Source of the DNA: a virus
UHGV virus genome: UHGV-0367612
Length of the DNA stretch: 64,000 nucleotides
Direction: 5' to 3' (one strand)
Part shown: positions 6,285 to 63,077 of the stretch, in pieces
How positions within the stretch are numbered: the stretch's first letter is position 1
How the letters are laid out: every line of letters starts with the position of its first letter
Translations under genes and position numbers: made by a program
Notes under the pieces: model-generated
Seen by the model: the letters and a program-made list of their open reading frames with translations, nothing else
The model's database searches: none
Told to the model about the DNA's origin: nothing

Positions 6285-6443
6285 ACTCTATTTTATGTTT
6301 TGTAATGTTCATTAGTTCCCCTGAAAGTCAGACACTTAGGGCATAATTTAATATATAATAGCATATTTTGTGCCTTAGGCTATCAACTTATTTATAATTT
6401 ATATTTATATTTGCACTACCAAACTATATAATAATTCAAGGAT

Positions 6444-7079
6444 ATGGAATTACACAGGCTAAAAGAAATGCAAGATGACTACGATGAAGAGTTATTTAAC
6501 AAAATCTACAAGGATTGTAGCAAACTCATGAACAAGCTCACTTTTGGTATTAACCCCCTCTACTATGGAGTTACCACTGATATTATCCGTAGTTGGTTTG
6601 ATGATAAGTTTATTTATGTTTATAATAAGTATTATGGTGAGATGTCGGATAAATCGCTCAAATCACATATCATCAAAGCACTACAACAATTCAGATGCAG
6701 AATCTTAAGAGGAGCTTACACTCAACATTCTGAAAAGAATATAGAAATGGTTAGGTTGGATGATGAAGAGTACCAACGTTATAACATGGATGTTATAGAC
6801 GATATTGAACCAGAGGTTGATGAAGAACTCCTATCTAAAGTAAAGGATTTTATGAAGCAAACATTGAGTGAAGATGCTTACTTTTTCTTTAATCTCCAAC
6901 TAAATCCTCCCCCAATGGTCTTATCAAATGAGAAAGAAACTTCAGATGAGAAATGGGCTTCATTCTTAGACTTACCACAAGAAGAATCCACTTATATATA
7001 CCTCGATAAATTAAGAGAAGAGATTTCAAGGGGTACTAAAAGATGCAGAAACAAATTCAAAGATCAGGTTACAAAATAA
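6444..7079 (+). CDS. hypothetical protein, possible transcription regulator transcribed divergently from replication genes
   Basis: 211-aa ORF preceded by TATATTTG (6406-6413), which looks like a -7 element. Acidic middle. No confident family. Confidence 0.4.
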   Translation: MELHRLKEMQDDYDEELFNKIYKDCSKLMNKLTFGINPLYYGVTTDIIRSWFDDKFIYVYNKYYGEMSDKSLKSHIIKALQQFRCRILRGAYTQHSEKNIEMVRLDDEEYQRYNMDVIDDIEPEVDEELLSKVKDFMKQTLSEDAYFFFNLQLNPPPMVLSNEKETSDEKWASFLDLPQEESTYIYLDKLREEISRGTKRCRNKFKDQVTK

Positions 7080-38055: not shown

Positions 38056-40518
38056 TTAAATCGGATTTGTTACTAAGTTTTTCTTACCTTTTCTGATATA
38101 GTTAGTTATGGCTTCAGCCATTATGCAGTCATCTGTGTATACTGCATCATCATCGTAGATGTTATCATCGTTTGCCTTATCTTTACCCATTGCCACTGGC
38201 CTATTTCTGGAATCGAATATGAATGTATATGACTCATCCACAAAGAATTTGTTACATATATTCACTTGGTCAAAACGGATATCTTCTTCTAACTCATCTA
38301 TAATAATTGGTCTAGTGGATGTGGTTGTATACCAACCTGGGATATCTTCTACCTCAGGCTTACTTTTACCTTTCTTTTTCAAGAGTTTTTTGGCGTAATA
38401 CAAGTTAGGATAACCGTGATCCTGAATCTTAGAAGTTACTGCCAACCCAATATCATTTGATTCTGGTGCTATCAAAGCATTGTTGAAACGTTTACCGGTA
38501 TGCATGAGGAGGTTTGCATACTTAGAGGGATTTATCTTTCCCCTAAAATAAGCTAACTCCTCCCCATACCGGTTCATAACAGAAAATGCAGAATAGTCGT
38601 TTGCTCTACCAATAGCAACGTCTGCTCCGATAAAGCATCTCTCACCAGGTTTAGCGAAACGTCGTATGAAAAGTTTCCCATTCTGTTCAATGGAAATATA
38701 ATCATCTGGATAAGGTAAGCATTCCTCTATTGCTCTGATACAATTCAAATCGAATACCGTATTACCTGAAGAAAGGAAGTCACCATCAATCTCCTGTGCT
38801 GTTCTCCTTGGACCCAGTGACTTAGCCATCGAGTTATACCACTCCTCGTTTCTTTCAGGGTGCATTTGCCAATACAACCGAATAGGATTGAAATAACTAT
38901 CTCCATTTTTGGCATCAACCCATTGTTTGTGAAAGAAGTTCCCAATACCCATTGGCGTGTTATGGTTGATATACAGCGAGTTACATATATAAGATTGATC
39001 CTCTTCTACTGAAATATCATATATGTTCTCATAGGTGACGTTCACTAATTTTAACTTAGAAATATTCACCTTTGTAACCCTCTTGTTGTTTATAACTCTA
39101 CTGATATATGAAGCATTTACTCTTAACCCTAATTCATCTTCAATCTCTCTCATAATAATCTTAGATGAACCATAGGAGTTACCATACTTTTGATACTTCT
39201 CTTTTATCTTACCTATCAATAAGATATCTGGAAATTTATCACCCACACTTGGAGCAACTTTAAATGTGGGGGAAAGGTTTACTGCTCTCTTAGTATTTTC
39301 TGATTGAGATAGTATTTGTAAGTTTGTTACATAATTATGAGAATGGTCACAATCTATATGGTCTACTACATAACCTTCTGGAATATCACCTATAAATAAT
39401 TTAGCTACTAATCTTGATACTGAAAAGTTCTTACTCTCCCCATTTGCCCAAAGCTTAAACCTATAATACCCAGAATTACCTAGTATGGGTTCTTTCTCTA
39501 TCAGAGAATCACCATCCTTTATATATAACTTACCCCAGTTAGATAACATATATTTTGGATAACCAGGTATATTCTTGAATATCTCAATACTTGGTTTCTC
39601 GGTTTTTTTTGTTTCTAACTTCTTAAACCCTGTATCAAAGGTTATTATATTTAAACCTTCTCTAACAATTCTACCTACTGACCTCCAACCCTCTGTAGTA
39701 TATAATTTATGAGCTGGAGTACATCTCAAAGTATTTCCTTGTTCATCTTCTACTTCCCAGGTTTTCAATATACCTTTGTTCACAGAGTGTGTTACTTTTC
39801 TCCACTTACCAGTATGTGATAATACTTCTATCCCTAAATGAGATATATCTTTTATCCCCATTTCTTTTGGGCATACAGTATCAATTCTCAATGGTCCTTC
39901 TTTTGTAACTATTTCAGTATCACCTGTAACGCAAGAGTTTAGGATAGCACTACCTCCAGTTGATAGAGTGGGGAATGCTGCTGCCCAGATCCTATCAGCC
40001 CATCTTACAATTGCCGCCTCGTCTATCACAAGAAGAGAAACTGCCTCTGAACGACCGGCTTCTTCTGTTGTGGGGACTGATGTTATTGATGACCCATTCA
40101 CAAACTCAAGTACTGTGGCAGTACCAAATGAGTCTCCACGTATTTGAGTTACAGGAGTTTGTAACCATTCTGGCAGGTTTTTGTACATGTACTTAATCCT
40201 TTTCAAAACTCTCTTTGCAACCATATCCTTGATCGAGATAATCTGGATATTCTTGTTGTCATTAAACATGGCTAACCATAAGCAAAAGAAAGCGATAAGC
40301 TCTGTTAAACCTGCCTGACGAAACTTAAGTATGATGTTGAAACGGTTGTTCAGAAAATTCCAGAGAACTGCTCTCTGGTATTCGTAGAGTTTGAATTGTA
40401 CTTTACCCTTAACAGGATGAATGATATACACAAAGTTTGCAAGGTAGAATGGATTTACCTTGCATGTCCTGTATATTTCAAATTGTTCCTTCGTAAGAGT
40501 TACTATCTTTTTCTCCAT
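38056..40518 (-). CDS. terL: terminase large subunit, interrupted by an intein
   Basis: Exteins carry Walker B LLVIDEAA and the terminase motif STGGSAILNS|...|TPMGIGNFFH. The inserted segment between Ser195 and Thr521 has intein hallmarks. Confidence 0.85.
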   Translation of the reverse strand: MEKKIVTLTKEQFEIYRTCKVNPFYLANFVYIIHPVKGKVQFKLYEYQRAVLWNFLNNRFNIILKFRQAGLTELIAFFCLWLAMFNDNKNIQIISIKDMVAKRVLKRIKYMYKNLPEWLQTPVTQIRGDSFGTATVLEFVNGSSITSVPTTEEAGRSEAVSLLVIDEAAIVRWADRIWAAAFPTLSTGGSAILNSCVTGDTEIVTKEGPLRIDTVCPKEMGIKDISHLGIEVLSHTGKWRKVTHSVNKGILKTWEVEDEQGNTLRCTPAHKLYTTEGWRSVGRIVREGLNIITFDTGFKKLETKKTEKPSIEIFKNIPGYPKYMLSNWGKLYIKDGDSLIEKEPILGNSGYYRFKLWANGESKNFSVSRLVAKLFIGDIPEGYVVDHIDCDHSHNYVTNLQILSQSENTKRAVNLSPTFKVAPSVGDKFPDILLIGKIKEKYQKYGNSYGSSKIIMREIEDELGLRVNASYISRVINNKRVTKVNISKLKLVNVTYENIYDISVEEDQSYICNSLYINHNTPMGIGNFFHKQWVDAKNGDSYFNPIRLYWQMHPERNEEWYNSMAKSLGPRRTAQEIDGDFLSSGNTVFDLNCIRAIEECLPYPDDYISIEQNGKLFIRRFAKPGERCFIGADVAIGRANDYSAFSVMNRYGEELAYFRGKINPSKYANLLMHTGKRFNNALIAPESNDIGLAVTSKIQDHGYPNLYYAKKLLKKKGKSKPEVEDIPGWYTTTSTRPIIIDELEEDIRFDQVNICNKFFVDESYTFIFDSRNRPVAMGKDKANDDNIYDDDAVYTDDCIMAEAITNYIRKGKKNLVTNPI
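38959..39933 (-). mobile_element. intein (325 aa) with NUMOD4/HNH homing endonuclease, inserted in terL
   Basis: Begins CVTGDTEI (the block-A Cys is the first residue after ...ILNS). Ends ...SLYINHN followed by the extein Thr (His-Asn + Thr/Ser/Cys). Internal NIPGYPKYMLSNWGKLYIKDG is NUMOD4-like. VVDHIDCDHSHNYVTNLQILSQSENTKRA is an HNH core. Boundaries were checked at nucleotide level: gca 39931-39933 encodes the Cys, gtt 38959-38961 encodes the terminal Asn. Confidence 0.7.
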
Positions 40519-41455: not shown

Positions 41456-42466
41456 CTAAATAAACTTTTTGTGTCTGAAAATCCATTCCAATGATTGTTT
41501 TATCCATGTCCCTACTTCATAAGGGGGGCACTTAGCTACTGTAGTACGGCCTTTGTTTATCCAATAGTTGATGTTCTCCCTCTCTGCATGGATTATGAAT
41601 TCATCAGGTATTCCCTGTATCCTAGCTAATTCTCTAGGACTCATCTGATAACCATCGGGATTGAATTGTCTGTTTGATTTCCTAGCTACTTGAGGATATG
41701 AATGCTTCAGGTTTCTGTAAACACCCGGTGCAGAAGAGTATTTACGTTTACTAGCTATGAATCTCTTTTCATTCGGATGATCTATCCAATACCTTCTTAC
41801 TTCAGATAATGTCATCTTAAATCCGGCATACATAGTTACTTCAGAATTTATCAACTCAGTGATATGTCCCCAAGGTATAGAATGGTTGTTGGATTTTAAT
41901 CCTTTTAACAAAATTCCAGTAGTTTTAGGCTTATGTTCTTTAAATTTCGTGATGTGTTTCCATATCAGTTTATGATTAACTGGGAAATCTTTCCTTATAC
42001 CCATCACTATAAGCCTTATTCTCCCAACTTGAGAATTCCCAAACTTTAACACTGAGCCAGTTAAGTAATGTAAGTGGTATTCTTCACTAAGCCATTTTAT
42101 CTCCTTAACAGAATATTTGGCTTTCGGTAAATTCTCCATGAAAAATATACTCGGTTTATAGGTTTTTATCTGGTCAAAGAACATGGCAAATGAATCATTA
42201 TCAAGAGGATTAGAGAATTCTTTTGCCCTTGTTAAAGCCATCATTGATGATGATCCACAATCTGGTGCTCCCACTATCACATCTGGGAAATCAAATACTT
42301 CTTCAGGTTTTTTGTAGAATGGTATACCTTCAAAATTCCTATTCCACTGGATATTGTTTTGAGTATGGAATAAACTCCTACTCTCAATATTTCCAGTAAG
42401 GTTGTCTTTCATTGGGTATAACCAAGAACCATTACCCCCACATACTGCTAAAATTTTGTGTTTCAT
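41456..42466 (-). CDS. C5-cytosine methyltransferase-fold protein with non-canonical motif IV (DCG instead of PCQ)
   Basis: Motif I-like ILAVCGGNGSW (FxGxGG). Motif IV-like VIVGAPDCGSSS (canonical GGPPCQxFS). Motif VI FFMENLP (ENV). Motif VIII-like GRIRLIVMGIRKD (QxRxR). Confidence 0.5.
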   Translation of the reverse strand: MKHKILAVCGGNGSWLYPMKDNLTGNIESRSLFHTQNNIQWNRNFEGIPFYKKPEEVFDFPDVIVGAPDCGSSSMMALTRAKEFSNPLDNDSFAMFFDQIKTYKPSIFFMENLPKAKYSVKEIKWLSEEYHLHYLTGSVLKFGNSQVGRIRLIVMGIRKDFPVNHKLIWKHITKFKEHKPKTTGILLKGLKSNNHSIPWGHITELINSEVTMYAGFKMTLSEVRRYWIDHPNEKRFIASKRKYSSAPGVYRNLKHSYPQVARKSNRQFNPDGYQMSPRELARIQGIPDEFIIHAERENINYWINKGRTTVAKCPPYEVGTWIKQSLEWIFRHKKFI

Positions 42467-42640
42467 ATTAATTGTTTTTATTTTGCAATAGTTGGTATTG
42501 CCAAATCTATCATTTGGATGGGTAAATATTGAATCTAGAAGAAAATTATTGAGTAAAAGCTAAGTTAATTCATTGGCCCTAAAAAGTTTAAACTAGATAA
42601 CTCTTTCTATCTTGGTTCTAATAATCCTAAAATCAAACAA

Positions 42641-44105: not shown

Positions 44106-44304
44106 AACCTGTGGTAAACTGTTAGTAGAGGTAGAAGCTGATTGGTACCAGTTTAATTGGTATTACGCTCCGTTAGAGATAAGACCACCATTAAGAGAAC
44201 TGTTTCCTGGAATTACTCATGAACAGTTCTTGGGTTTGAAATACAGGAAATGTGAGCAATGCAGGAAACAAAAGAAACAAAAGAAACAAAGGATTTGCAT
44301 TTAG
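44053..44304 (+). CDS. zinc-ribbon protein, paralogous to the preceding ORF and overlapping it in the +1 frame
   Basis: 83 aa with CKTCGKLL ... CEQCRKQ, the same CxxCGK...CxxC architecture. Basic KKQKKQ tail. Starts inside the A-rich end of the upstream ORF. Confidence 0.35.
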   Translation: MKKEKKNTREHPLQVYCKTCGKLLVEVEADWYQFNWYYAPLEIRPPLRELFPGITHEQFLGLKYRKCEQCRKQKKQKKQRICI

Positions 44305-44325
44305 TAAAACGGGATATTATATTTG
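44294..44325 (+). promoter_or_regulatory. Bacteroidetes-type sigma-AB promoter (TTTG-20nt-TATATTTG), extended conserved block
   Basis: gaTTTGCATttagTAAAACgGGataTTATATTTGCAT. The -33 TTTG is at 44294-44297 and the -7 TATATTTG at 44318-44325, ~24 nt upstream of the 44349 ATG. It is nearly identical to the minus-strand promoter blocks at 55.8 and 60.4 kb. Confidence 0.6.
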
Positions 44326-44348: not shown

Positions 44349-44606
44349 ATGGTTATTAAGACTTTACTAAAATTGATTATCCTAATCCCCACTTTAAAAA
44401 TCTTAAAATGGTGGTACAGGGGATTTAATATGTTTATTTGGGTTGGATGTGGTATCACATTTAGTTTTGCAAGGGTATCTGGAAATATGGATTTACTAGA
44501 TAAAGGGTGGTATAAAACATTCACAGAAGTTTTGGGTTTTAGTTTATACATGATACTTCATGTATTATGGATATTAGCTATCAGAGAATTAATCATTAAG
44601 TTATAA
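44349..44606 (+). CDS. small membrane protein
   Basis: 85 aa with hydrophobic helices LLKLIILIPTL and FIWVGCGITFSFA ... LYMILHVLWILAI. Immediately upstream of thyA. Confidence 0.4.
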   Translation: MVIKTLLKLIILIPTLKILKWWYRGFNMFIWVGCGITFSFARVSGNMDLLDKGWYKTFTEVLGFSLYMILHVLWILAIRELIIKL

Positions 44607-44607
44607 T

Positions 44608-45672
44608 ATGTTACAGTACTTAGAGTTATTAAAGAAAGTCCATGTTTTAGGGACTTATAGAAAGCCGGCAAGAGAAGGGATGCCTGCTTCTAAGAATTTA
44701 TTCGGTGAGATGATGGAAATTGATTTACGTGATGGGTTTCCATTATTAACTACTAAAAAGATGGCTTGGAATGCTATCAGGGTAGAGTTATTATGGTTCT
44801 TGAGAGGAATACCAAACCTAAGGTATTTATGGAGATATAATGTACATATCTGGGACCAAGATGCTTATAGGTTTTACAAGAGAAAATGTGAGACTTATAC
44901 GAGGACTCCCATATCTACTTACATGAAGACTCCATTATCTTATGAGGGTTGGTTAGAGAGATTATGGGTTATGAGAAATGGTTCTTTCTGGGAAAGAAAT
45001 CAGGACTTTGACAAGATGACCTATATGGGAGCAGTTTACCCAGCTCAATGGAGAGGTACATTTGTTTTTGGAGGGTCTTCTCATACTGATCAAATCCTAT
45101 ACATGATAGAGAATATCCGAAATAATCCTACGAGTAGATACCATATAGTTGATGCTTGGAATCCTATGGATATTGACCTGAACAAAAGGACTCCAGTGTT
45201 AGCTTTACCACCTTGTCACATGAGCCACCAAATCTTGGTAGATGTGAAGAGTGGTGAGTTTGATATGCTCATGTACCAGAGAAGTGCAGATATTTTCTTG
45301 GGAGTACCATTTAACATAGCTAGTTATGCTTTACTATGTTACTTCTATAGCATGATGACTGGATATCAACCTAGGTATCTCAAAATGATTTTTGGAAGCG
45401 TTGATTTATATGAAACTCATTTTGAGCAAGCAAGAGTTCAATTGAACAGAGATCCCAAGTTATTACCGAGATTAAAACTATTACCAAATGAGAATGGTGT
45501 TATGGATAGAGTGATGGAGTTCAATATGAAGGCTAAGGAGTATTATGATAACCCCACTCATTCGAAGTTAAATGAAGTGGTCAATACATTACAACCTTCA
45601 GACTTTGAGTTAGTGGGATATGACCCACATCCTGCAATAAAAGGGAAACTAGATACTGGGTTAGGAATCTAA
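44608..45672 (+). CDS. thyA: thymidylate synthase family enzyme (ThyA-like; TS or dUMP hydroxymethylase) with large small-domain insertion
   Basis: Strong identity to E. coli ThyA blocks: LQYLEL..V...G (N-terminus), DGFPLLTTKK, PPCH catalytic Cys, MLMYQRSADIFLGVPFNIASYALL, GYDPHPAIKG. About 45 extra residues lie between IWD and YPAQWR. The pyrimidine-specificity Asn in PFNIASY is retained. Confidence 0.85.
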   Translation: MLQYLELLKKVHVLGTYRKPAREGMPASKNLFGEMMEIDLRDGFPLLTTKKMAWNAIRVELLWFLRGIPNLRYLWRYNVHIWDQDAYRFYKRKCETYTRTPISTYMKTPLSYEGWLERLWVMRNGSFWERNQDFDKMTYMGAVYPAQWRGTFVFGGSSHTDQILYMIENIRNNPTSRYHIVDAWNPMDIDLNKRTPVLALPPCHMSHQILVDVKSGEFDMLMYQRSADIFLGVPFNIASYALLCYFYSMMTGYQPRYLKMIFGSVDLYETHFEQARVQLNRDPKLLPRLKLLPNENGVMDRVMEFNMKAKEYYDNPTHSKLNEVVNTLQPSDFELVGYDPHPAIKGKLDTGLGI

Positions 45673-49930: not shown

Positions 49931-49950
49931 AAAGTGGTGGAAATTTTTTG

Positions 49951-49980
49951 GAGGATATGGATAACGTATCCTCTTTTTTG
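49951..49980 (+). terminator. rho-independent terminator ending the plus-strand small-gene array
   Basis: gaggata-tggataacg-tatcctc hairpin followed by TTTTTT (49974-49979). Confidence 0.6.
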
Positions 49981-50140
49981 TATGTATAGGGTGATGGGGT
50001 GGCTTTGAATCCTTGTCCTTGATCCTTGTTTGTGGGGCTTGGGAAAGTCGTAGCTGTAGGGGGGCCGGTCGGTAGGATATAATTAAAAAATAAGTGTTAA
50101 TTTTTTAGGGGACAAATTAACACTTATCTAATTTAAAAAT

Positions 50141-50251
50141 TTAACGTTTTTCTTTCTTGAAACACACGTACAAAATGCAAACAATAACTAAAATAATAAT
50201 CTGCATAATGAAAGAAAGTATTTCAATTAATGCGTTTAAAATAGCGTCCAT
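50141..50251 (-). CDS. 36-aa hydrophobic peptide (not in ORF track)
   Basis: ATG at the complement of 50249-50251. Translation MDAILNALIEILSFIMQIIILVIVCILYVCFKKEKR, then stop. Single TM. Lies inside the AT-rich island. Confidence 0.2.
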   Translation of the reverse strand: MDAILNALIEILSFIMQIIILVIVCILYVCFKKEKR

Positions 50252-50421
50252 ATCTAAAAACAATTATAGATAAATATATCATATTTCTTTTTGAAAATTT
50301 TTTCATAGAAATATTTTTTTAGTTTTAAAATCTTTTTCTCCATTCTAAAATAATTGAATACACGAAACAAATAAAAATGAGTAGTACAAATGTACTACTC
50401 ACTAATGTAAAAATATTCATT

Positions 50422-50850: not shown

Positions 50851-51524
50851 CTCATAGCCAAATTATATTTTTACATTTTTTCAACATTTCAAAGAACTTG
50901 TTTTTTTATCGTTTTTCGATATACGAATGTACAATTAATTTTTGAACTACAAAAATATTTGCAAGAAAAAATCAAATTATTTTCATGAAAAAATTAATTT
51001 TATTTTCATTCTAAATTAAATAAAAATCGAAAAATTTTTGATTAAAAATTTGTTTTTGTCAAAAAAATTTCGTAGATTCAATATATAAAATATCCACCTG
51101 CCCGCCTGCCCACCCTATTCCTAATTCCAATCTAGCTCTGGCTTCCGCTCCTAGTCCTGGTATCTTCTGAGCCCGCCTACCTTCTTAGCCTTAAATTAAA
51201 CCCGCCTTCCTATTCCTAACCTATTAACATTAACCCAATAGCTCTCACCTTTCAGTTCTCCGGTTAACTGATAAGAAGGCTTTAAGATAACTAGGATATA
51301 AGGCCTTATGACCACTAATTATGATATCTAGTTGATCAACTCTTATCAAACATGTAAATATTCTCATAGAATAACTACTTTTCTTCTAGAAATTCATTCT
51401 GGCTGTCCTAAAATGACAGAAAAGCGAGCTTTCATTCAGTCAAACTTTCTCACACAATCAATCACAAAAATAGAGTGGCTGTATGGGTCACTCTATCATT
51501 ACATCTAATACAGCTCTTACAGCC

Positions 51525-52040
51525 TCAGTTCTTTTTCTCAAGCATTTTCACTACCTGATATCCGACCTTTGCCTGGATAACATCCATCCGGTAATCCTGG
51601 AATTTACTGTAGTGGGTGTACTCTTCCAGTTCCCTTGTCTTGATAACCTTCTCAATCCTGTTGATGAAATCCTGAACATCAACCTCATATTGTGCCTGAT
51701 GTAGTACCTGATAGTACTGGGATATCAGATCCGGAATATAGTCGCAGAGCTCATCATCCTCTGTAACCTCCATAGCCCTCTCATAAACTAAGAGTCCCAA
51801 CATATTCAGATAAGCTGTTAACCTTGTTTCCGGTACGTTGACTTCCCATATATTATCCGGTAAACATCCAAATACATCCATTATGGGTTCCATCTCTTCC
51901 CAATCCTGAGGGTCGTAAATCTTGATAGCCTTGAGCCCTGTGATCTTCTCTGCCCAAGCTAACAACTCATATTCTCCGGTTGAACCTACAGTTAATAACT
52001 TAATTTCCTTGATTCCCTGATTTGCTTGTTCGTTCTCCAT
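51525..52040 (-). CDS. hypothetical acidic protein
   Basis: 171 aa. A conserved promoter block lies immediately upstream (52068-52106). Confidence 0.5.
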   Translation of the reverse strand: MENEQANQGIKEIKLLTVGSTGEYELLAWAEKITGLKAIKIYDPQDWEEMEPIMDVFGCLPDNIWEVNVPETRLTAYLNMLGLLVYERAMEVTEDDELCDYIPDLISQYYQVLHQAQYEVDVQDFINRIEKVIKTRELEEYTHYSKFQDYRMDVIQAKVGYQVVKMLEKKN

Positions 52041-52106: not shown

Positions 52107-52357
52107 TTTTTAACCCTAATAGGGATCTGAAACCCGCCCACTTATCTTAGAGGCCTTAACATCACCAAGCCGAGATTTAGGATAGGGCTGAAGGACCTAT
52201 CCTCCATGGCTATGGTTCTCTATCCTAATTCTAATCCTTAGCCTGATATCCATAGCCTGACAAAGCCAAACACTAAAAGTTCTCCCAGTACATTATATAA
52301 GTACAAAGGAGAACTGATCAGGCTTGGGTTGTTGGCCTTGATTTGGGGATATGGCTC

Positions 52358-53851: not shown

Positions 53852-54028
53852 ATTATCATGGTTTTAGTAATCACTTATATGATATCTGGAAATCTGGGTC
53901 TTAGACCTACTTATGAGTAGTTTAAGATAAATCTCTACAAATTCTTTTTAGTTAACTAGATACACAAAAAGAAAGAGCCAAATCATTCAATTTGACCCTT
54001 TCCAGTTAATTCAAATTATGGAGTTTAC

Positions 54029-55855: not shown

Positions 55856-55893
55856 ATGCAAATATATAAAACCTGTTTTACTTTTGCAAATCC
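55856..55893 (-). promoter_or_regulatory. conserved Bacteroidetes-type promoter block
   Basis: Minus-strand reading: ggaTTTGCAaaagTAAAACaGGtttTATATATTTGCATatat. The -33 TTTG is 20 nt from the -7 TATATTTG. The ATG at 55827 is ~30 nt downstream. Confidence 0.6.
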
Positions 55894-55906
55894 TAAATAA
55901 CCAATT

Positions 55907-56383
55907 TTACTCATCCCTATTTGTGTAATCTACCACCCTAACATAGATATGTCTATTAGGATCTTTCATTTGGTGTACGTTCTTTTCCTCTTCTCCATCA
56001 ATGATGAACGGGAATTGTACTGGAGACATGGTCATCTTGAAGGTGTACATCTCAACCCCAAATTCATTTTCCAAGATTTCAATGGTTCTCTTAAATACCT
56101 GGAAATAGACAAACGGGTAATTCTTTTCAAATTGCCGGGTCTTAATGACAAACTTTTGCATTGCTGGTGTAGTATAGCTCATTTGACAAGCATCCCTCTC
56201 AGATACCTTGAGTGCTGCAGACTGAGCTATCACAACTATGGTGGGTTTATTCTCACCATGTCTCCCCTCGATTTCAGAGGTAAACAGATAATCTATTTCC
56301 TCTGCCTTTAAGGCGATTATCAACTGTTCAATGAATTGCTTAAACGTGCAATCGTAATTTAACTGATCTAACTTAACTTCCAT
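55907..56383 (-). CDS. hypothetical protein
   Basis: 158-aa ORF downstream of the 56387 gene. Confidence 0.45.
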   Translation of the reverse strand: MEVKLDQLNYDCTFKQFIEQLIIALKAEEIDYLFTSEIEGRHGENKPTIVVIAQSAALKVSERDACQMSYTTPAMQKFVIKTRQFEKNYPFVYFQVFKRTIEILENEFGVEMYTFKMTMSPVQFPFIIDGEEEKNVHQMKDPNRHIYVRVVDYTNRDE

Positions 56384-56386
56384 AAC

Positions 56387-56722
56387 TTAAATGTCTAAAA
56401 TTAACTGAACTCCAACTAATTTGATTGAACCTTCATAAGGTTTCATATATACTCTCTCGTATTCCGGTAAAGTCATACCTAACATCTTGGCATCGTGTTC
56501 AAGCATATCCGTGGGCTCTACCTTAAGTATGTTATCGTCCTTTTGAACATAAACATAAACCCTCTCATGTTTTTGGGCGTTGGCGATAAAACTCTCAATA
56601 AAGTATTCCTTACCATAATGGTCATTACTATCGGATATTTGCTCATCCTTTACCCGTAAATACTTATTGTTTAACTCATCCCAAATTAACTCAGCTGCCT
56701 GTTGTAACTCTTTTTGCTCCAT
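56387..56722 (-). CDS. small acidic protein
   Basis: 111 aa. Promoter block immediately upstream. Confidence 0.45.
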   Translation of the reverse strand: MEQKELQQAAELIWDELNNKYLRVKDEQISDSNDHYGKEYFIESFIANAQKHERVYVYVQKDDNILKVEPTDMLEHDAKMLGMTLPEYERVYMKPYEGSIKLVGVQLILDI

Positions 56723-56750
56723 AACTTAAATATTATTAATTATTTAATTT

Positions 56751-56790
56751 ATGCAAATATAAAAAACCCAAGTTGCTAATGCAAATCTTG
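56751..56790 (-). promoter_or_regulatory. conserved promoter block overlapping a 9-bp-stem hairpin
   Basis: Minus-strand reading: ccaagaTTTGCAttagcaacttgggtttTTTATATTTGCAT. aaacccaag and cttgggttt form an inverted repeat across the spacer. Confidence 0.5.
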
Positions 56791-56817
56791 GGTTTCCTTA
56801 TTAACCTGAATAACCTT

Positions 56818-59739: not shown

Positions 59740-60028
59740 ACCCTTTCACTTTTTCCCTTATGGGCACGATGTGAGTCTTATATAAAGACTTCCATAAAAA
59801 CTCAGGTAAGGGTCTAAATGAATTCTCTGATACCTTATCCCACTTTGCCCGGAGTGAGTTAATGCAAAACCGGAATGTACTCATGTCCTCCATTGCATTA
59901 AAATTCGTTATCAGATCATCAAAATCCTTTTTCATGTCCTCAATAAAATTGTTATAAGGGAAATTCTCAGTGTTCTCCAAATTATACTTTCCCAAATACT
60001 CTGTTACTTCCATGTACCTAACCTCCAT
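59672..60028 (-). CDS. hypothetical protein
   Basis: 118-aa ORF overlapping its neighbour. The true start may be an internal Met. Confidence 0.35.
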   Translation of the reverse strand: MEVRYMEVTEYLGKYNLENTENFPYNNFIEDMKKDFDDLITNFNAMEDMSTFRFCINSLRAKWDKVSENSFRPLPEFLWKSLYKTHIVPIREKVKGFDPEAVKGHHEKMVKRGRAYGN

Positions 60029-60321
60029 TAAGCTAAATATTTCTCTTGCAATTCTTTTAACTCTTTTTGTGCCTTTCTCAACTCTTTTGCATCCTCTCCA
60101 CCAGATGCTCGGAATACCCTTAATTCGGCTTTCTCAATTTGATTCCGAACCTTTTGCCGGTAAGACTTCCTTTTAACCGTGTCAATCATACCCTTTGGGT
60201 ATTTGTACCTGAGTTCTTTTCTCACTACCACTTCCTTAACAACCTCTAACTCCATTTGTTCTTTGGCAGACTTGGTTTCCTTAACCTGTTCTTCCTTTTT
60301 TGTTTTGACTTTTGTTTTCAT
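60028..60321 (-). CDS. small basic coiled-coil protein
   Basis: 97 aa, Lys/Glu-rich. First gene downstream of the 60363-60400 promoter. Confidence 0.45.
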   Translation of the reverse strand: MKTKVKTKKEEQVKETKSAKEQMELEVVKEVVVRKELRYKYPKGMIDTVKRKSYRQKVRNQIEKAELRVFRASGGEDAKELRKAQKELKELQEKYLA

Positions 60322-60362
60322 AACTTACTCATTATTAATTATTATAATTATTATTAAATGCA

Positions 60363-60400
60363 ATGCAAATATATAAAACCTGTTTTACTTTTGCAAATCC
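60363..60400 (-). promoter_or_regulatory. conserved promoter block (38/38 nt identical to the 55856 copy)
   Basis: Plus-strand text tgcaaatatataaaacctgttttacttttgcaaatcc is identical to 55858-55894. Confidence 0.6.
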
Positions 60401-60404
60401 TTTG

Positions 60405-60904: not shown

Positions 60905-61248
60905 AATCCTAAATACTTTTCTAGTTCTGCTTCTTCTTTTAATTCACGTAATTGCTTACGAGTCGTTTTCTTTTTACTTTGAAGCTCTTTAATTTGTCTC
61001 TGTAAATCCTCCACTGCCGCTTCAATATCATAAGGATCATTCCCATCCACTGAAGTCCCAGTATAAATCTCACCCTTGGGAACCTTAATCCCATAATCAG
61101 ATAAACTCTTGTCCCGATATGGATAGGGAATAGTAATCTTCCCGTAATTCTTTGGAGCATCCCACTTTTTCTTCATCTCGGTTTCATTAATCCCATATAC
61201 ACATGATATGAGAATCCCTATCAATACTGCCACTACGTATTTCATCAA
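60901..61248 (-). CDS. secreted/lipoprotein-like small protein
   Basis: 115 aa. N-terminus MMKYVVAVLIGILISCVYG is signal-peptide-like with a Cys. Basic coiled-coil C-terminus. Confidence 0.4.
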   Translation of the reverse strand: MMKYVVAVLIGILISCVYGINETEMKKKWDAPKNYGKITIPYPYRDKSLSDYGIKVPKGEIYTGTSVDGNDPYDIEAAVEDLQRQIKELQSKKKTTRKQLRELKEEAELEKYLGL

Positions 61249-62054
61249 TAATTGAATAAGTGATCCAAGACCTGTCTATCTAACCCAATCTCTTTTGCCG
61301 GTTTCAAGTCAAACTCATGGTTTAACTGGTAGTTAAATCCATTATAGACGTAATAGTCATTGCAAATGGCTATCTTGTTTTTCTCCATTTCCAATTTGAT
61401 CCGATCTACAATATTCTCTCTATAAGTTCCCGGGAATCCAGTTTCTTCAATAACATCCACTACCCGATCTTCAAATGATCTTCTAACCTTTTGAGATTCT
61501 AATTCTCGGAATGGGTAAATTGCCTCTTCAAACCTGTTGATAAGGTCATTGGCTGAGTCCAAGAGATATTCCGGATTGAGCATCTTTTCTAAGGCTTCTG
61601 TGTGTAACCCCTTGACATGAATCCCAGCACCTTCCGGAATGCACATCCCATTAGTGCATATTTGCCGGTAAATGGCTGCGGTCATTTGGAATTTCATTGA
61701 CCCATCATAGGAATTGTAAAAACTCAATTTCGGGTGTAATGAATCTACTCCCTCCATTTTAACCTTTTGGTCTTTGAGAATCAAATCCAATCGAGTGATA
61801 GCCCCACCCTTAATGAGTTTAGCCTGAGGTTCTACCTTGAATTTATCAGAAAATAATTCAATGATAGGTTGAAATACTACCTTATTCTCAACCAAGTGGT
61901 ATTTCTCAGAGCAAAAATTCACTATTCGTGCATTCTCTGTTCCTGGATTGACAATCACTGCATACTCATTGCTGGAATTAACCTGAATCCCCGGTATCAA
62001 TTCTGATACCTTTCTTTTAATAACTGGTTGGTAAATCTGTTCTAACGTACTCAT
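61245..62054 (-). CDS. hypothetical protein
   Basis: 269 aa, the largest protein of the early array. Promoter block upstream. Confidence 0.45.
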   Translation of the reverse strand: MSTLEQIYQPVIKRKVSELIPGIQVNSSNEYAVIVNPGTENARIVNFCSEKYHLVENKVVFQPIIELFSDKFKVEPQAKLIKGGAITRLDLILKDQKVKMEGVDSLHPKLSFYNSYDGSMKFQMTAAIYRQICTNGMCIPEGAGIHVKGLHTEALEKMLNPEYLLDSANDLINRFEEAIYPFRELESQKVRRSFEDRVVDVIEETGFPGTYRENIVDRIKLEMEKNKIAICNDYYVYNGFNYQLNHEFDLKPAKEIGLDRQVLDHLFNY

Positions 62055-62134: not shown

Positions 62135-62563
62135 TTAACTTTCCCATCTCTCTGTTACGAAGATGAAATCGGCTGCAAAGGTAACATCTACCCCATTCTC
62201 GAAAAATTGACTGATACCTCTTTGACATTGGTACTCATCAAAATCATAATACTCATCTCCATCTATATCAAAGTCCTCATTAACAGATTCAAATACCCAT
62301 TGGTGAAAACCATAACCTCTGGCATCATTCTCGAAGGTATCGAAATGACATAACTGCCAATTCCTATCTCTGAACCATTTGAAGAAATCCTTCCAGTAAA
62401 TATTGTTTTTCTCCAATTTCCCATTAATTAAAGTGTAACCCGTTATATATTCCCATACTCCGGTTCTATTCTGAGAATCATTCCGGATGAATCTTTTGAT
62501 TGCATCCTCTGTAGTCTTCTTTGCTAATTGCAAGCTTAACTGGTTTAAATCTTGTATCTCCAT
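62135..62563 (-). CDS. hypothetical acidic protein
   Basis: 142-aa ORF with a promoter block upstream. Confidence 0.45.
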   Translation of the reverse strand: MEIQDLNQLSLQLAKKTTEDAIKRFIRNDSQNRTGVWEYITGYTLINGKLEKNNIYWKDFFKWFRDRNWQLCHFDTFENDARGYGFHQWVFESVNEDFDIDGDEYYDFDEYQCQRGISQFFENGVDVTFAADFIFVTERWES

Positions 62564-62624: not shown

Positions 62625-62657
62625 TTGTTACGTGATTAACATGAAAAGAGGCTCATT

Positions 62658-63077
62658 TTACTGAGCCTCTGGTTTTAGTCCAAATTTAAGATTGAAATCT
62701 CTGAGCTTCTCTCGTGCTCTCTCTTTATAAAAGATCTTTTCCCACCATTTTAGTTTCCCAATAAAGAAATCTAGTATTGGTTGTTGGTTTTTCAATATAA
62801 CTTTATGTAGCAATGAAAATTGCTCACTAGATAAATCGTGCATGATATTAGCCATAGCCCCTGTATTGATCCCCAATTTGGTGTACAAACTGATAGAATC
62901 TAGGTTGAGGTCTGTCCAATCATCAACTGATATCCCGGGTATAACACATTCTACTGATTTACCTAAAACCTTTTTATTAGCGGCTGCTATAACCTGAGCC
63001 AGAGTTTTAATAACTGCCAACTCATCCTGGTTAAAAGGAGGCCTATTCTTCATCGCTGTCCTCGGCATAACTTTCAA
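62658..63077 (-). CDS. hypothetical protein
   Basis: 139-aa ORF. Confidence 0.4.
   Translation of the reverse strand: MKVMPRTAMKNRPPFNQDELAVIKTLAQVIAAANKKVLGKSVECVIPGISVDDWTDLNLDSISLYTKLGINTGAMANIMHDLSSEQFSLLHKVILKNQQPILDFFIGKLKWWEKIFYKERAREKLRDFNLKFGLKPEAQ

Follow-up and report, generated by a model that had tools for sequence, protein, structure and literature searches.

We analysed a stretch of 64,000 nucleotides of viral DNA (UHGV-0367612), hereafter called the window. The window encodes a major capsid protein, portal, protease-like protein, large terminase, tail sheath, tape measure and baseplate J. Furthermore, it encodes a 1606-aa fibre-like protein, a DnaB-like helicase, a primase and a SNF2-type helicase. 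Among the window proteins, we detected neither an RNA polymerase nor a sigma factor of the phage. The tail sheath, tape measure and baseplate J indicate a contractile-tailed phage that is not crAss-like. A crAss-like phage with promoters for a virion RNA polymerase is ruled out by these three proteins together with the portal, capsid and TerL, and the 1606-aa protein is ruled out as a polymerase as it resembles a tail fibre. Scans for tRNAs and Rfam families found nothing in the window.

A megablast search with 12 kb of the window returned no near match among deposited phage genomes. Searches with the portal, DnaB and sheath proteins (tblastn) found no cultured relatives with a known host and matched solely uncultured human-faecal phages at 29–41% identity. 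Four close relatives are present in IMG/VR (82–84 kb, about 75–94% nucleotide identity) and the window thus represents about three quarters of a genome of about 83 kb. From its sequence, we identify the phage as an uncultured ~83-kb gut myovirus.

Seven copies of a two-box motif occur in the window. The plus-strand copy, P44294 (44292..44327), has its −33 TTTG at 44294–44297 and its −7 box TATATTTG at 44318–44325, and four relatives have retained an orthologous copy. It heads two plus-strand genes (44349..45672), an 85-aa ORF (44349–44606) and a gene for a thymidylate-synthase-family protein (44608–45672). The latter protein comprises 354 aa, which is about 90 aa more than the Pfam model, and thus carries insertions; it could be ThyA or a related pyrimidine hydroxymethylase. 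Directly upstream of P44294, a short tandem repeat, GAAACAAAA, occurs about three times (44268–44291, plus strand) and is kept in relatives.

The remaining copies are on the minus strand, where they divide the region from 64.0 to 51.5 kb into units of one to ten small genes. P62620 (62587..62622) is upstream of 62135–62563, and P62119 (62086..62121) is upstream of a DUF932 gene (61245–62054) and three small genes. P60397 (60364..60399) heads a block of about ten ORFan genes from 60321 down to 56818, followed by P56785 (56752..56787), which heads two ORFan genes (55907..56722). P55890 (55857..55892) heads five small ORFan genes from 55827 down to 54029, which end at a terminator-like hairpin (53970–54003; another one is found at 50376–50403). 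Lastly, P52103 (52070..52105) is upstream of a 171-aa ORFan (51525–52040). The downstream genes are almost all ORFans: about 29 of the 30 downstream proteins have no match in the PHROG families, and Pfam adds just the DUF932 domain.

Geometry and placement of the motif

The pattern GATTTGCA-N18-TATATTTGCA matches seven times in the window, even when three mismatches are allowed, whereas 0.11 matches are expected from shuffled sequences. All seven copies of the original prediction were thus recovered with the two-box core at their places. Read in gene orientation, the sites align without gaps and both the GATTTGCA and the TATATTTGCA blocks are invariant. The −33 TTTG, which is part of GATTTGCA, is present in all seven sites, and the −7 box reads TATATTTG in each of them. 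The spacing between TTTG and TAnnTTTG is exactly 20 nt in the seven sites, as it is in all 31 sites of the family, by which we mean the window together with the four relatives (~83-kb gut phage contigs). Consequently, the distance between the two ATTTGCA heptamers is 28 nt throughout. This differs from the original prediction in two details: a variable spacing of 19–21 nt had been proposed, and its own blocks, GGATTTGCA and TTATATATTTGCAT, are separated by 15 nt and not by 17–19 nt. Two copies had also been described as identical, which is correct for P55890 and P60397, but the shared stretch is 39 nt (39/39; 55856–55894 and 60363–60401) instead of 38 nt.

We built a position weight matrix (PWM) from the seven window sites and scanned both strands (128 kb). 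The seven sites score 46–56 bits (27–52 bits when each is left out of the matrix), whereas the next best site scores 0.2 bits and the maximum over 50 shuffles is 9 bits. With such a bimodal distribution, we conclude that the window has exactly seven copies; degenerate copies, for instance for late or replication genes, were not found on either strand. The prediction spoke of seven or more copies, and in agreement with this the close relatives L114 and L073 have two or three further copies, preceding small ORFs, in the ~20 kb of their genomes that extend beyond the window.

When mapped to ORF starts, the placement of the sites is non-random. All seven lie wholly within non-coding gaps, which has a chance probability of about 2e-8 given a non-coding share of about 7.9% (estimated from a crude ORF-based gene map), and all are co-oriented with the adjacent gene, which they face. 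The ATG follows the G of the −7 box at a distance of 23–44 nt, a wider range than the predicted 25–35 nt. The longest distance is found at the site at 60397, where a mini-ORF of four codons (ATG AGT AAG TTA TGA; 60322–60341, minus strand) precedes the real start and overlaps the start codon of gene 60028–60321. The relatives L013 and L090 have a similar arrangement, ATGAGTTAG...ATG.

TAnnTTTG on its own occurs 67 times in the window, which is about the chance level (we estimate about 77 expected occurrences), and only two of these occurrences are sensible −7-only candidates upstream of genes, at 6406 (plus strand) and 42502 (minus strand). In the first (6381–6443, plus strand), TATATTTGCA lies 28 nt before the ATG of 6444–7079. 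In the second (42467–42510, minus strand), TAGATTTG lies 35 nt upstream of the methyltransferase-like gene (41456–42466) that opens the long structural operon. Apart from these two candidates, the late and replication genes of the window have no recognisable host-type promoter.

Comparison with Bacteroidota promoters and the host

In Bacteroidetes, promoters read by the primary sigma factor (sigma-ABfr) have a −33 TTTG and a −7 TAnnTTTG (PMC7366714, PMC6847099, citing Bayley et al. 2000), and the −7 box has been refined to TAHHTTTG with the G at −5 (PMC6847099). Both elements are present in 7/7 sites, which agrees with these publications and bears out the promoter architecture that had been proposed. 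Taking the G of the −7 box as −5, the phage leaders are predicted to be about 19–40 nt long, in line with the 5'UTRs of Bacteroides thetaiotaomicron (mode 23 nt, median 32 nt; PMC7366714).

To place the motif taxonomically, we searched for the exact 36-nt pattern in a collection with one genome for each bacterial and archaeal species (596 Gb) and found it in at least 120 stretches of bacterial genomes. Among the 80 matches listed, 73 are from Bacteroidota, one is from Ignavibacteria and four are from outside Bacteroidota, where the phylum was assigned from the record titles. Bacteroidota make up about a tenth of species. We estimate that about 20–60 matches would arise by chance in 596 Gb, which accounts for the few outliers outside this phylum. 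The matched genomes listed cover Bacteroidales, Sphingobacteriales, Flavobacteriales, Chitinophagales and other orders of Bacteroidota. Furthermore, 31 of the genome sites listed are located 11–68 nt upstream of a co-oriented tRNA gene, and 45 of 101 precede an ORF of 60 codons or more, compared to 14 in a control of reversed orientation.

We then estimated base frequencies in 887 kb of the matched genomes, which are dominated by Bacteroidota, excluding the seeded sites. In this sample, 30% of the TAnnTTTG occurrences continue with CA and the commonest nn is TA; TATATTTGCA is thus the generic optimum of the phylum. The spacing at the host loci of the sample is 19 nt at 27 sites, 20 nt at 29 sites and 21 nt at two sites. 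At least 116 stretches of IMG/VR contigs, mostly unrelated to our phage, contain the exact pattern as well. Among the matches listed from unrelated viral contigs, an ORF follows 75 of 98 sites at a median distance of 28 nt, compared to four in the control.

The phage copies thus share both boxes, the 20-nt spacing, the leader length and genes that lack Shine-Dalgarno motifs with the sigma-ABfr promoters of Bacteroidota. Host promoters, however, have AT-rich spacers of variable length (19 or 20 nt about equally often) and a −33 box that is weak or even undetectable (PMC6847099). The phage copies, in contrast, are all perfect, with a fixed spacing, both boxes extended to ATTTGCA and G/C in the spacer. 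P_BfP1E6 is reportedly a strong Bacteroides phage promoter. Like the copies described here, this promoter (Whitaker et al. 2017) and the predicted promoters of the Bacteroides fragilis phage Bf12P1 are phage-borne and of the host type, and such promoters reportedly drive very strong expression in several species of Bacteroides. The promoter of a P_BfP1E6-driven cassette, as printed in PMC13634575, ends in the identical −7 box TATATTTGCA; by our reading of that source, it has CTTG instead of GATTTGCA at −33, and it stems from an unrelated phage. Strong promoters of the Bacteroidota type on a phage have known precedents such as P_BfP1E6. Our finding is sound but ordinary and leaves the current understanding of Bacteroidota transcription unchanged.

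Translation signals point to the same host. Shine-Dalgarno-like motifs (GGAG, GAGG or AGGA at −20 to −4) precede 7 of the 77 window genes (compared to 16.5% at random positions), and A is enriched to 54–67% at −14 to −11 of the phage genes in the window. A lack of Shine-Dalgarno motifs combined with A-rich positions −14 to −11 is characteristic of Bacteroidetes (PMC6847099). Three independent lines, namely the distribution of the promoter pattern, the missing Shine-Dalgarno motifs and the A-rich positions, thus agree with the predicted Bacteroidota host, and this host is supported by the genomic signals at the resolution of the phylum and not of the genus. That the motif defines the host clade, as originally proposed, holds for the phylum; it does not hold at finer levels, as genomes of Bacteroidales, Sphingobacteriales, Flavobacteriales and Chitinophagales have the same pattern. 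Given the faecal origin of the relatives, a host within Bacteroidales is most likely, with the motif itself resolving no further than the phylum. These agreeing signals allow a phylum-level host call from sequence alone for an uncultured family of ~83-kb gut myoviruses that has no cultured relative.

Timing of the transcription units

From the architecture, placement, conservation and taxonomic distribution of the motif, we infer the use of the host polymerase, the start site, the promoter strength and the timing. In the proposed mechanism, the host RNA polymerase holoenzyme with a Bacteroidota primary sigma factor of the sigma-ABfr type would use the seven near-consensus promoters. Region 4 of the sigma factor would read the −33 box GATTTGCA, and region 2 would read the −7 box TATATTTGCA, 28 nt apart. 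Transcription would start about 5 nt past the G of the −7 box, according to the published geometry of promoters and start sites, and the resulting leaders would be A/T-rich and free of Shine-Dalgarno motifs. The promoters would cut the 14-kb region of small ORFans and the thyA-like operon into short transcription units, some of which would be preceded by a terminator hairpin. As such promoters would need no phage factor, their units would most probably be expressed first and hold early genes or genes for host takeover. Without the motif, the replication and structural modules would depend on something else, for instance on a phage factor, as in the classic scheme of phage transcription.

The two-box promoter is found neither in the 35-kb structural block (42.5 to 7.1 kb) nor among the replication genes (6.3 to 0.9 kb). 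Likewise, the recombination genes near the extra copies in the relatives (SSB, UvsX-like, SbcCD, RusA) have no two-box site. With the motif missing from structural, replication and recombination genes, at least two promoter classes must be present. The restriction of the motif to the ORFan and thyA blocks fits early expression, rather than proving it, and it is plausible from this arrangement that the units behind the seven promoters are early genes. We consider the best overall explanation, with a probability of about 0.85, to be that the seven sites are strong host-type sigma-ABfr promoters that probably drive early or takeover units of ORFans in a Bacteroidota host. The ORFans are thereby marked as candidate early host-takeover genes for functional work.

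The early promoters of other phages offer a comparison. The T4 Pe promoters and the early promoters of T5 and lambda also occur in many uniform copies that are stronger than host promoters and precede small genes of no assigned function (PMC6024815, T4 classes). They need no phage factor, as proposed for the seven sites, and other gene classes of these phages are without them. The sigma family and the consensus are different, and the timing of the promoters described here is a prediction from their sequence.

The main alternative concerns the timing and not the promoter type: the seven sites may be host-type promoters that are not specifically early, but are constitutive throughout infection or belong to middle genes, with timing set by antitermination, repressors or the order of DNA entry. 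In Bf12P1, −33/−7 promoters have been predicted for the early, middle and late modules (PMC13139388), so that the temporal class of a gene cannot be read from the motif class alone. In addition, one of the seven sites drives the thyA-like gene, and nucleotide metabolism is often a middle function. A weak match to a PHROG family of transcription antiterminators in a relative (L073:7798–8475; IMGVR_UViG_3300045988_126484; E=2e-4) points in the same direction. This gene lies beyond the window, adjoins the ORFan and promoter region, and is a possible lead for the expression of later genes. The absence of the motif from the structural, replication and recombination genes and its association with small ORFans, the usual profile of early genes, nevertheless speak against this alternative. 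We regard it as possible but rather unlikely.

Promoter cassettes in related phages

We next compared the 31 sites of the family. Pairwise, they are 99% identical in the −33 box and 100% identical in the −7 box, compared to 49% in the spacer (21 distinct spacers) and 53–54% in the 20-nt flanks. These natural perfect-consensus promoters with 21 spacers may be of use in Bacteroidota, either as parts for gene expression or as a mutational series in which to study promoter strength. A distant relative from human faeces, MT121964 (about 37–41% amino-acid identity), has about eight ATTTGCA-N18/19-TATATTTGCA/T sites that cluster at one end of the genome.

Within the family, conservation extends beyond the two boxes. 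A-53, G-47, A-44, G-18 and T-15 are 94–100% conserved, with the upstream A-53, G-47 and A-44 invariant over the 31 sites and the spacer positions G-18 and T-15 at 94–97%; A-24 is present in 87% of the sites. Most cassettes are preceded by an upstream element, GTTAAT-N3-GGTAAnnA, at about −57 to −40 (for instance 62627–62645 and 56790–56806), which is also found in the relatives L013, L021, L057 and L090. Unrelated phage or host sites with the same boxes show no conservation of these extra positions, and the spacers of those sites are AT-rich. The extra positions could represent an UP-like element, a binding site of a factor or the shared descent of the copies.

Some of the cassettes include a hairpin. 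At P56785, a stem of 9 bp (AAACCCAAG / CTTGGGTTT; 56761–56795, minus strand) is followed by a T-run and holds the −33 box in its loop. The region folds with a dG of −29.4 (z −3.0), and four genomes share the hairpin with 100% identity. For transcripts arriving from upstream, it resembles a terminator, which would share 40 nt with the promoter. The second case is a terminator-like hairpin at 62647–62670 (minus strand; 9 bp followed by TTTC), about 25 nt upstream of P62620, which makes this site a composite cassette of terminator and promoter. A hairpin with a T-run is clear at these two of the seven window sites, whereas the other five have no significant structure; we thus rejected a terminator-promoter composite as the general arrangement. 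Some sites of the relatives have a hairpin and a T-run as well (L073:11681, L114:792).

The comparison to a relative that is about 88% identical (L108; IMGVR_UViG_3300045988_155912) revealed that homology breaks at 56718 and 52035, in both cases exactly at the promoter leaders. Behind P56785, the first gene (56387–56722) is missing from this relative. Behind P52103, the ORFan 51525–52040 is swapped for two unrelated ORFs (blastp similarity is not significant) between conserved flanks. The P62620 orthologue in the same relative has the spacer of P55890 and P60397 within conserved flanks. Furthermore, the 40-nt sequence of P56785 is identical in the window and three relatives, where it precedes different genes, and in a more distant relative (116426) a cassette of 103 nt (56705–56807) alone is conserved between unrelated flanks. 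These few events are hints that promoter cassettes coincide with the boundaries of gene replacements and deletions between relatives.

A similar situation is known from the PeSL cassettes of T4-type phages (PMC2839356, PMC4122927), which are likewise repeated promoter cassettes in a plastic, ORFan-rich region, with deletion and replacement boundaries of close relatives at the cassettes (the boundaries are few in our data). The host phylum and the promoter type are different, and the stem-loop is clear in just two of the seven window cassettes. Taking these observations together, we tentatively suggest that the promoters may be mobile recombination cassettes of about 100 nt that carry marks of factor binding, as a Bacteroidota counterpart of the T4 PeSLs. 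Such a cassette would consist of an optional terminator hairpin, GTTAAT-N3-GGTAA, perfect −33/−7 boxes and an A/T-rich leader, and it might shuffle ORFan genes among gut Bacteroidota myophages. A-53, G-47, A-44, G-18 and T-15 would then mark the site of a putative phage or host factor by which early units are switched off. We regard this joint reading as speculative.

The same positions could also be read differently, namely that the conserved block is mainly the site of a phage protein (the operator of a repressor or activator, or a promoter read by an RNA polymerase or sigma factor of the phage) and merely resembles the host consensus. The near-invariant A-53, G-47, A-44, G-18 and T-15 and the GTTAAT-N3-GGTAA element are outside the host consensus, and G/C occurs in the phage spacers, whereas the spacers of host and unrelated phage sites are AT-rich. 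However, both boxes correspond exactly to the generic optimum of Bacteroidota, and host tRNA genes have the same pattern. No sigma-like or RNA polymerase-like protein and no clear HTH regulator is present among the proteins scanned, and the spread of cassette copies by recombination can explain the extra conserved positions. We therefore consider a site devoted to a phage protein improbable.

Lastly, a generic sigma-70 scan reads each site as TTTGCA-18-TATATT (9/12 matches), as expected for sigma-70/sigma-A promoters of an AT-rich host outside Bacteroidota such as a Firmicute, and 4 of the 80 matches listed are in records of Clostridia or Gammaproteobacteria; but 9/12 with an 18-nt spacer is weak, the region has hardly more sigma-70-like sites than expected (99 compared to 77), a −10 reading leaves the invariant TTTGCA after TATA unexplained, and 91% of the matches listed are from Bacteroidota with the remainder at the chance level (20–60 random matches estimated in 596 Gb), so that we give this reading hardly any weight. 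The genes of typical Firmicute phages do have Shine-Dalgarno motifs, whereas those of our phage do not.

Two further features of the window were noted besides the promoters. Non-coding stretches of unusual length are present at 49931–50421 (about 490 nt) and 50851–51524 (about 670 nt), in which an AT-rich core lies between short G-rich motifs (GGCGGG, TAGGAATAGG); similar G-rich motifs recur at 52130–52240. The repeats within 49.9–52.4 kb are just short AT-rich, chance-like matches, with no clear family and no Rfam match. These stretches may hold a replication origin or an RNA that is not annotated. The large terminase (38056–40518, minus strand, 820 aa) contains an intein-like insert with an HNH endonuclease at about aa 224–520, which is flanked by the ATPase and nuclease parts of the terminase.
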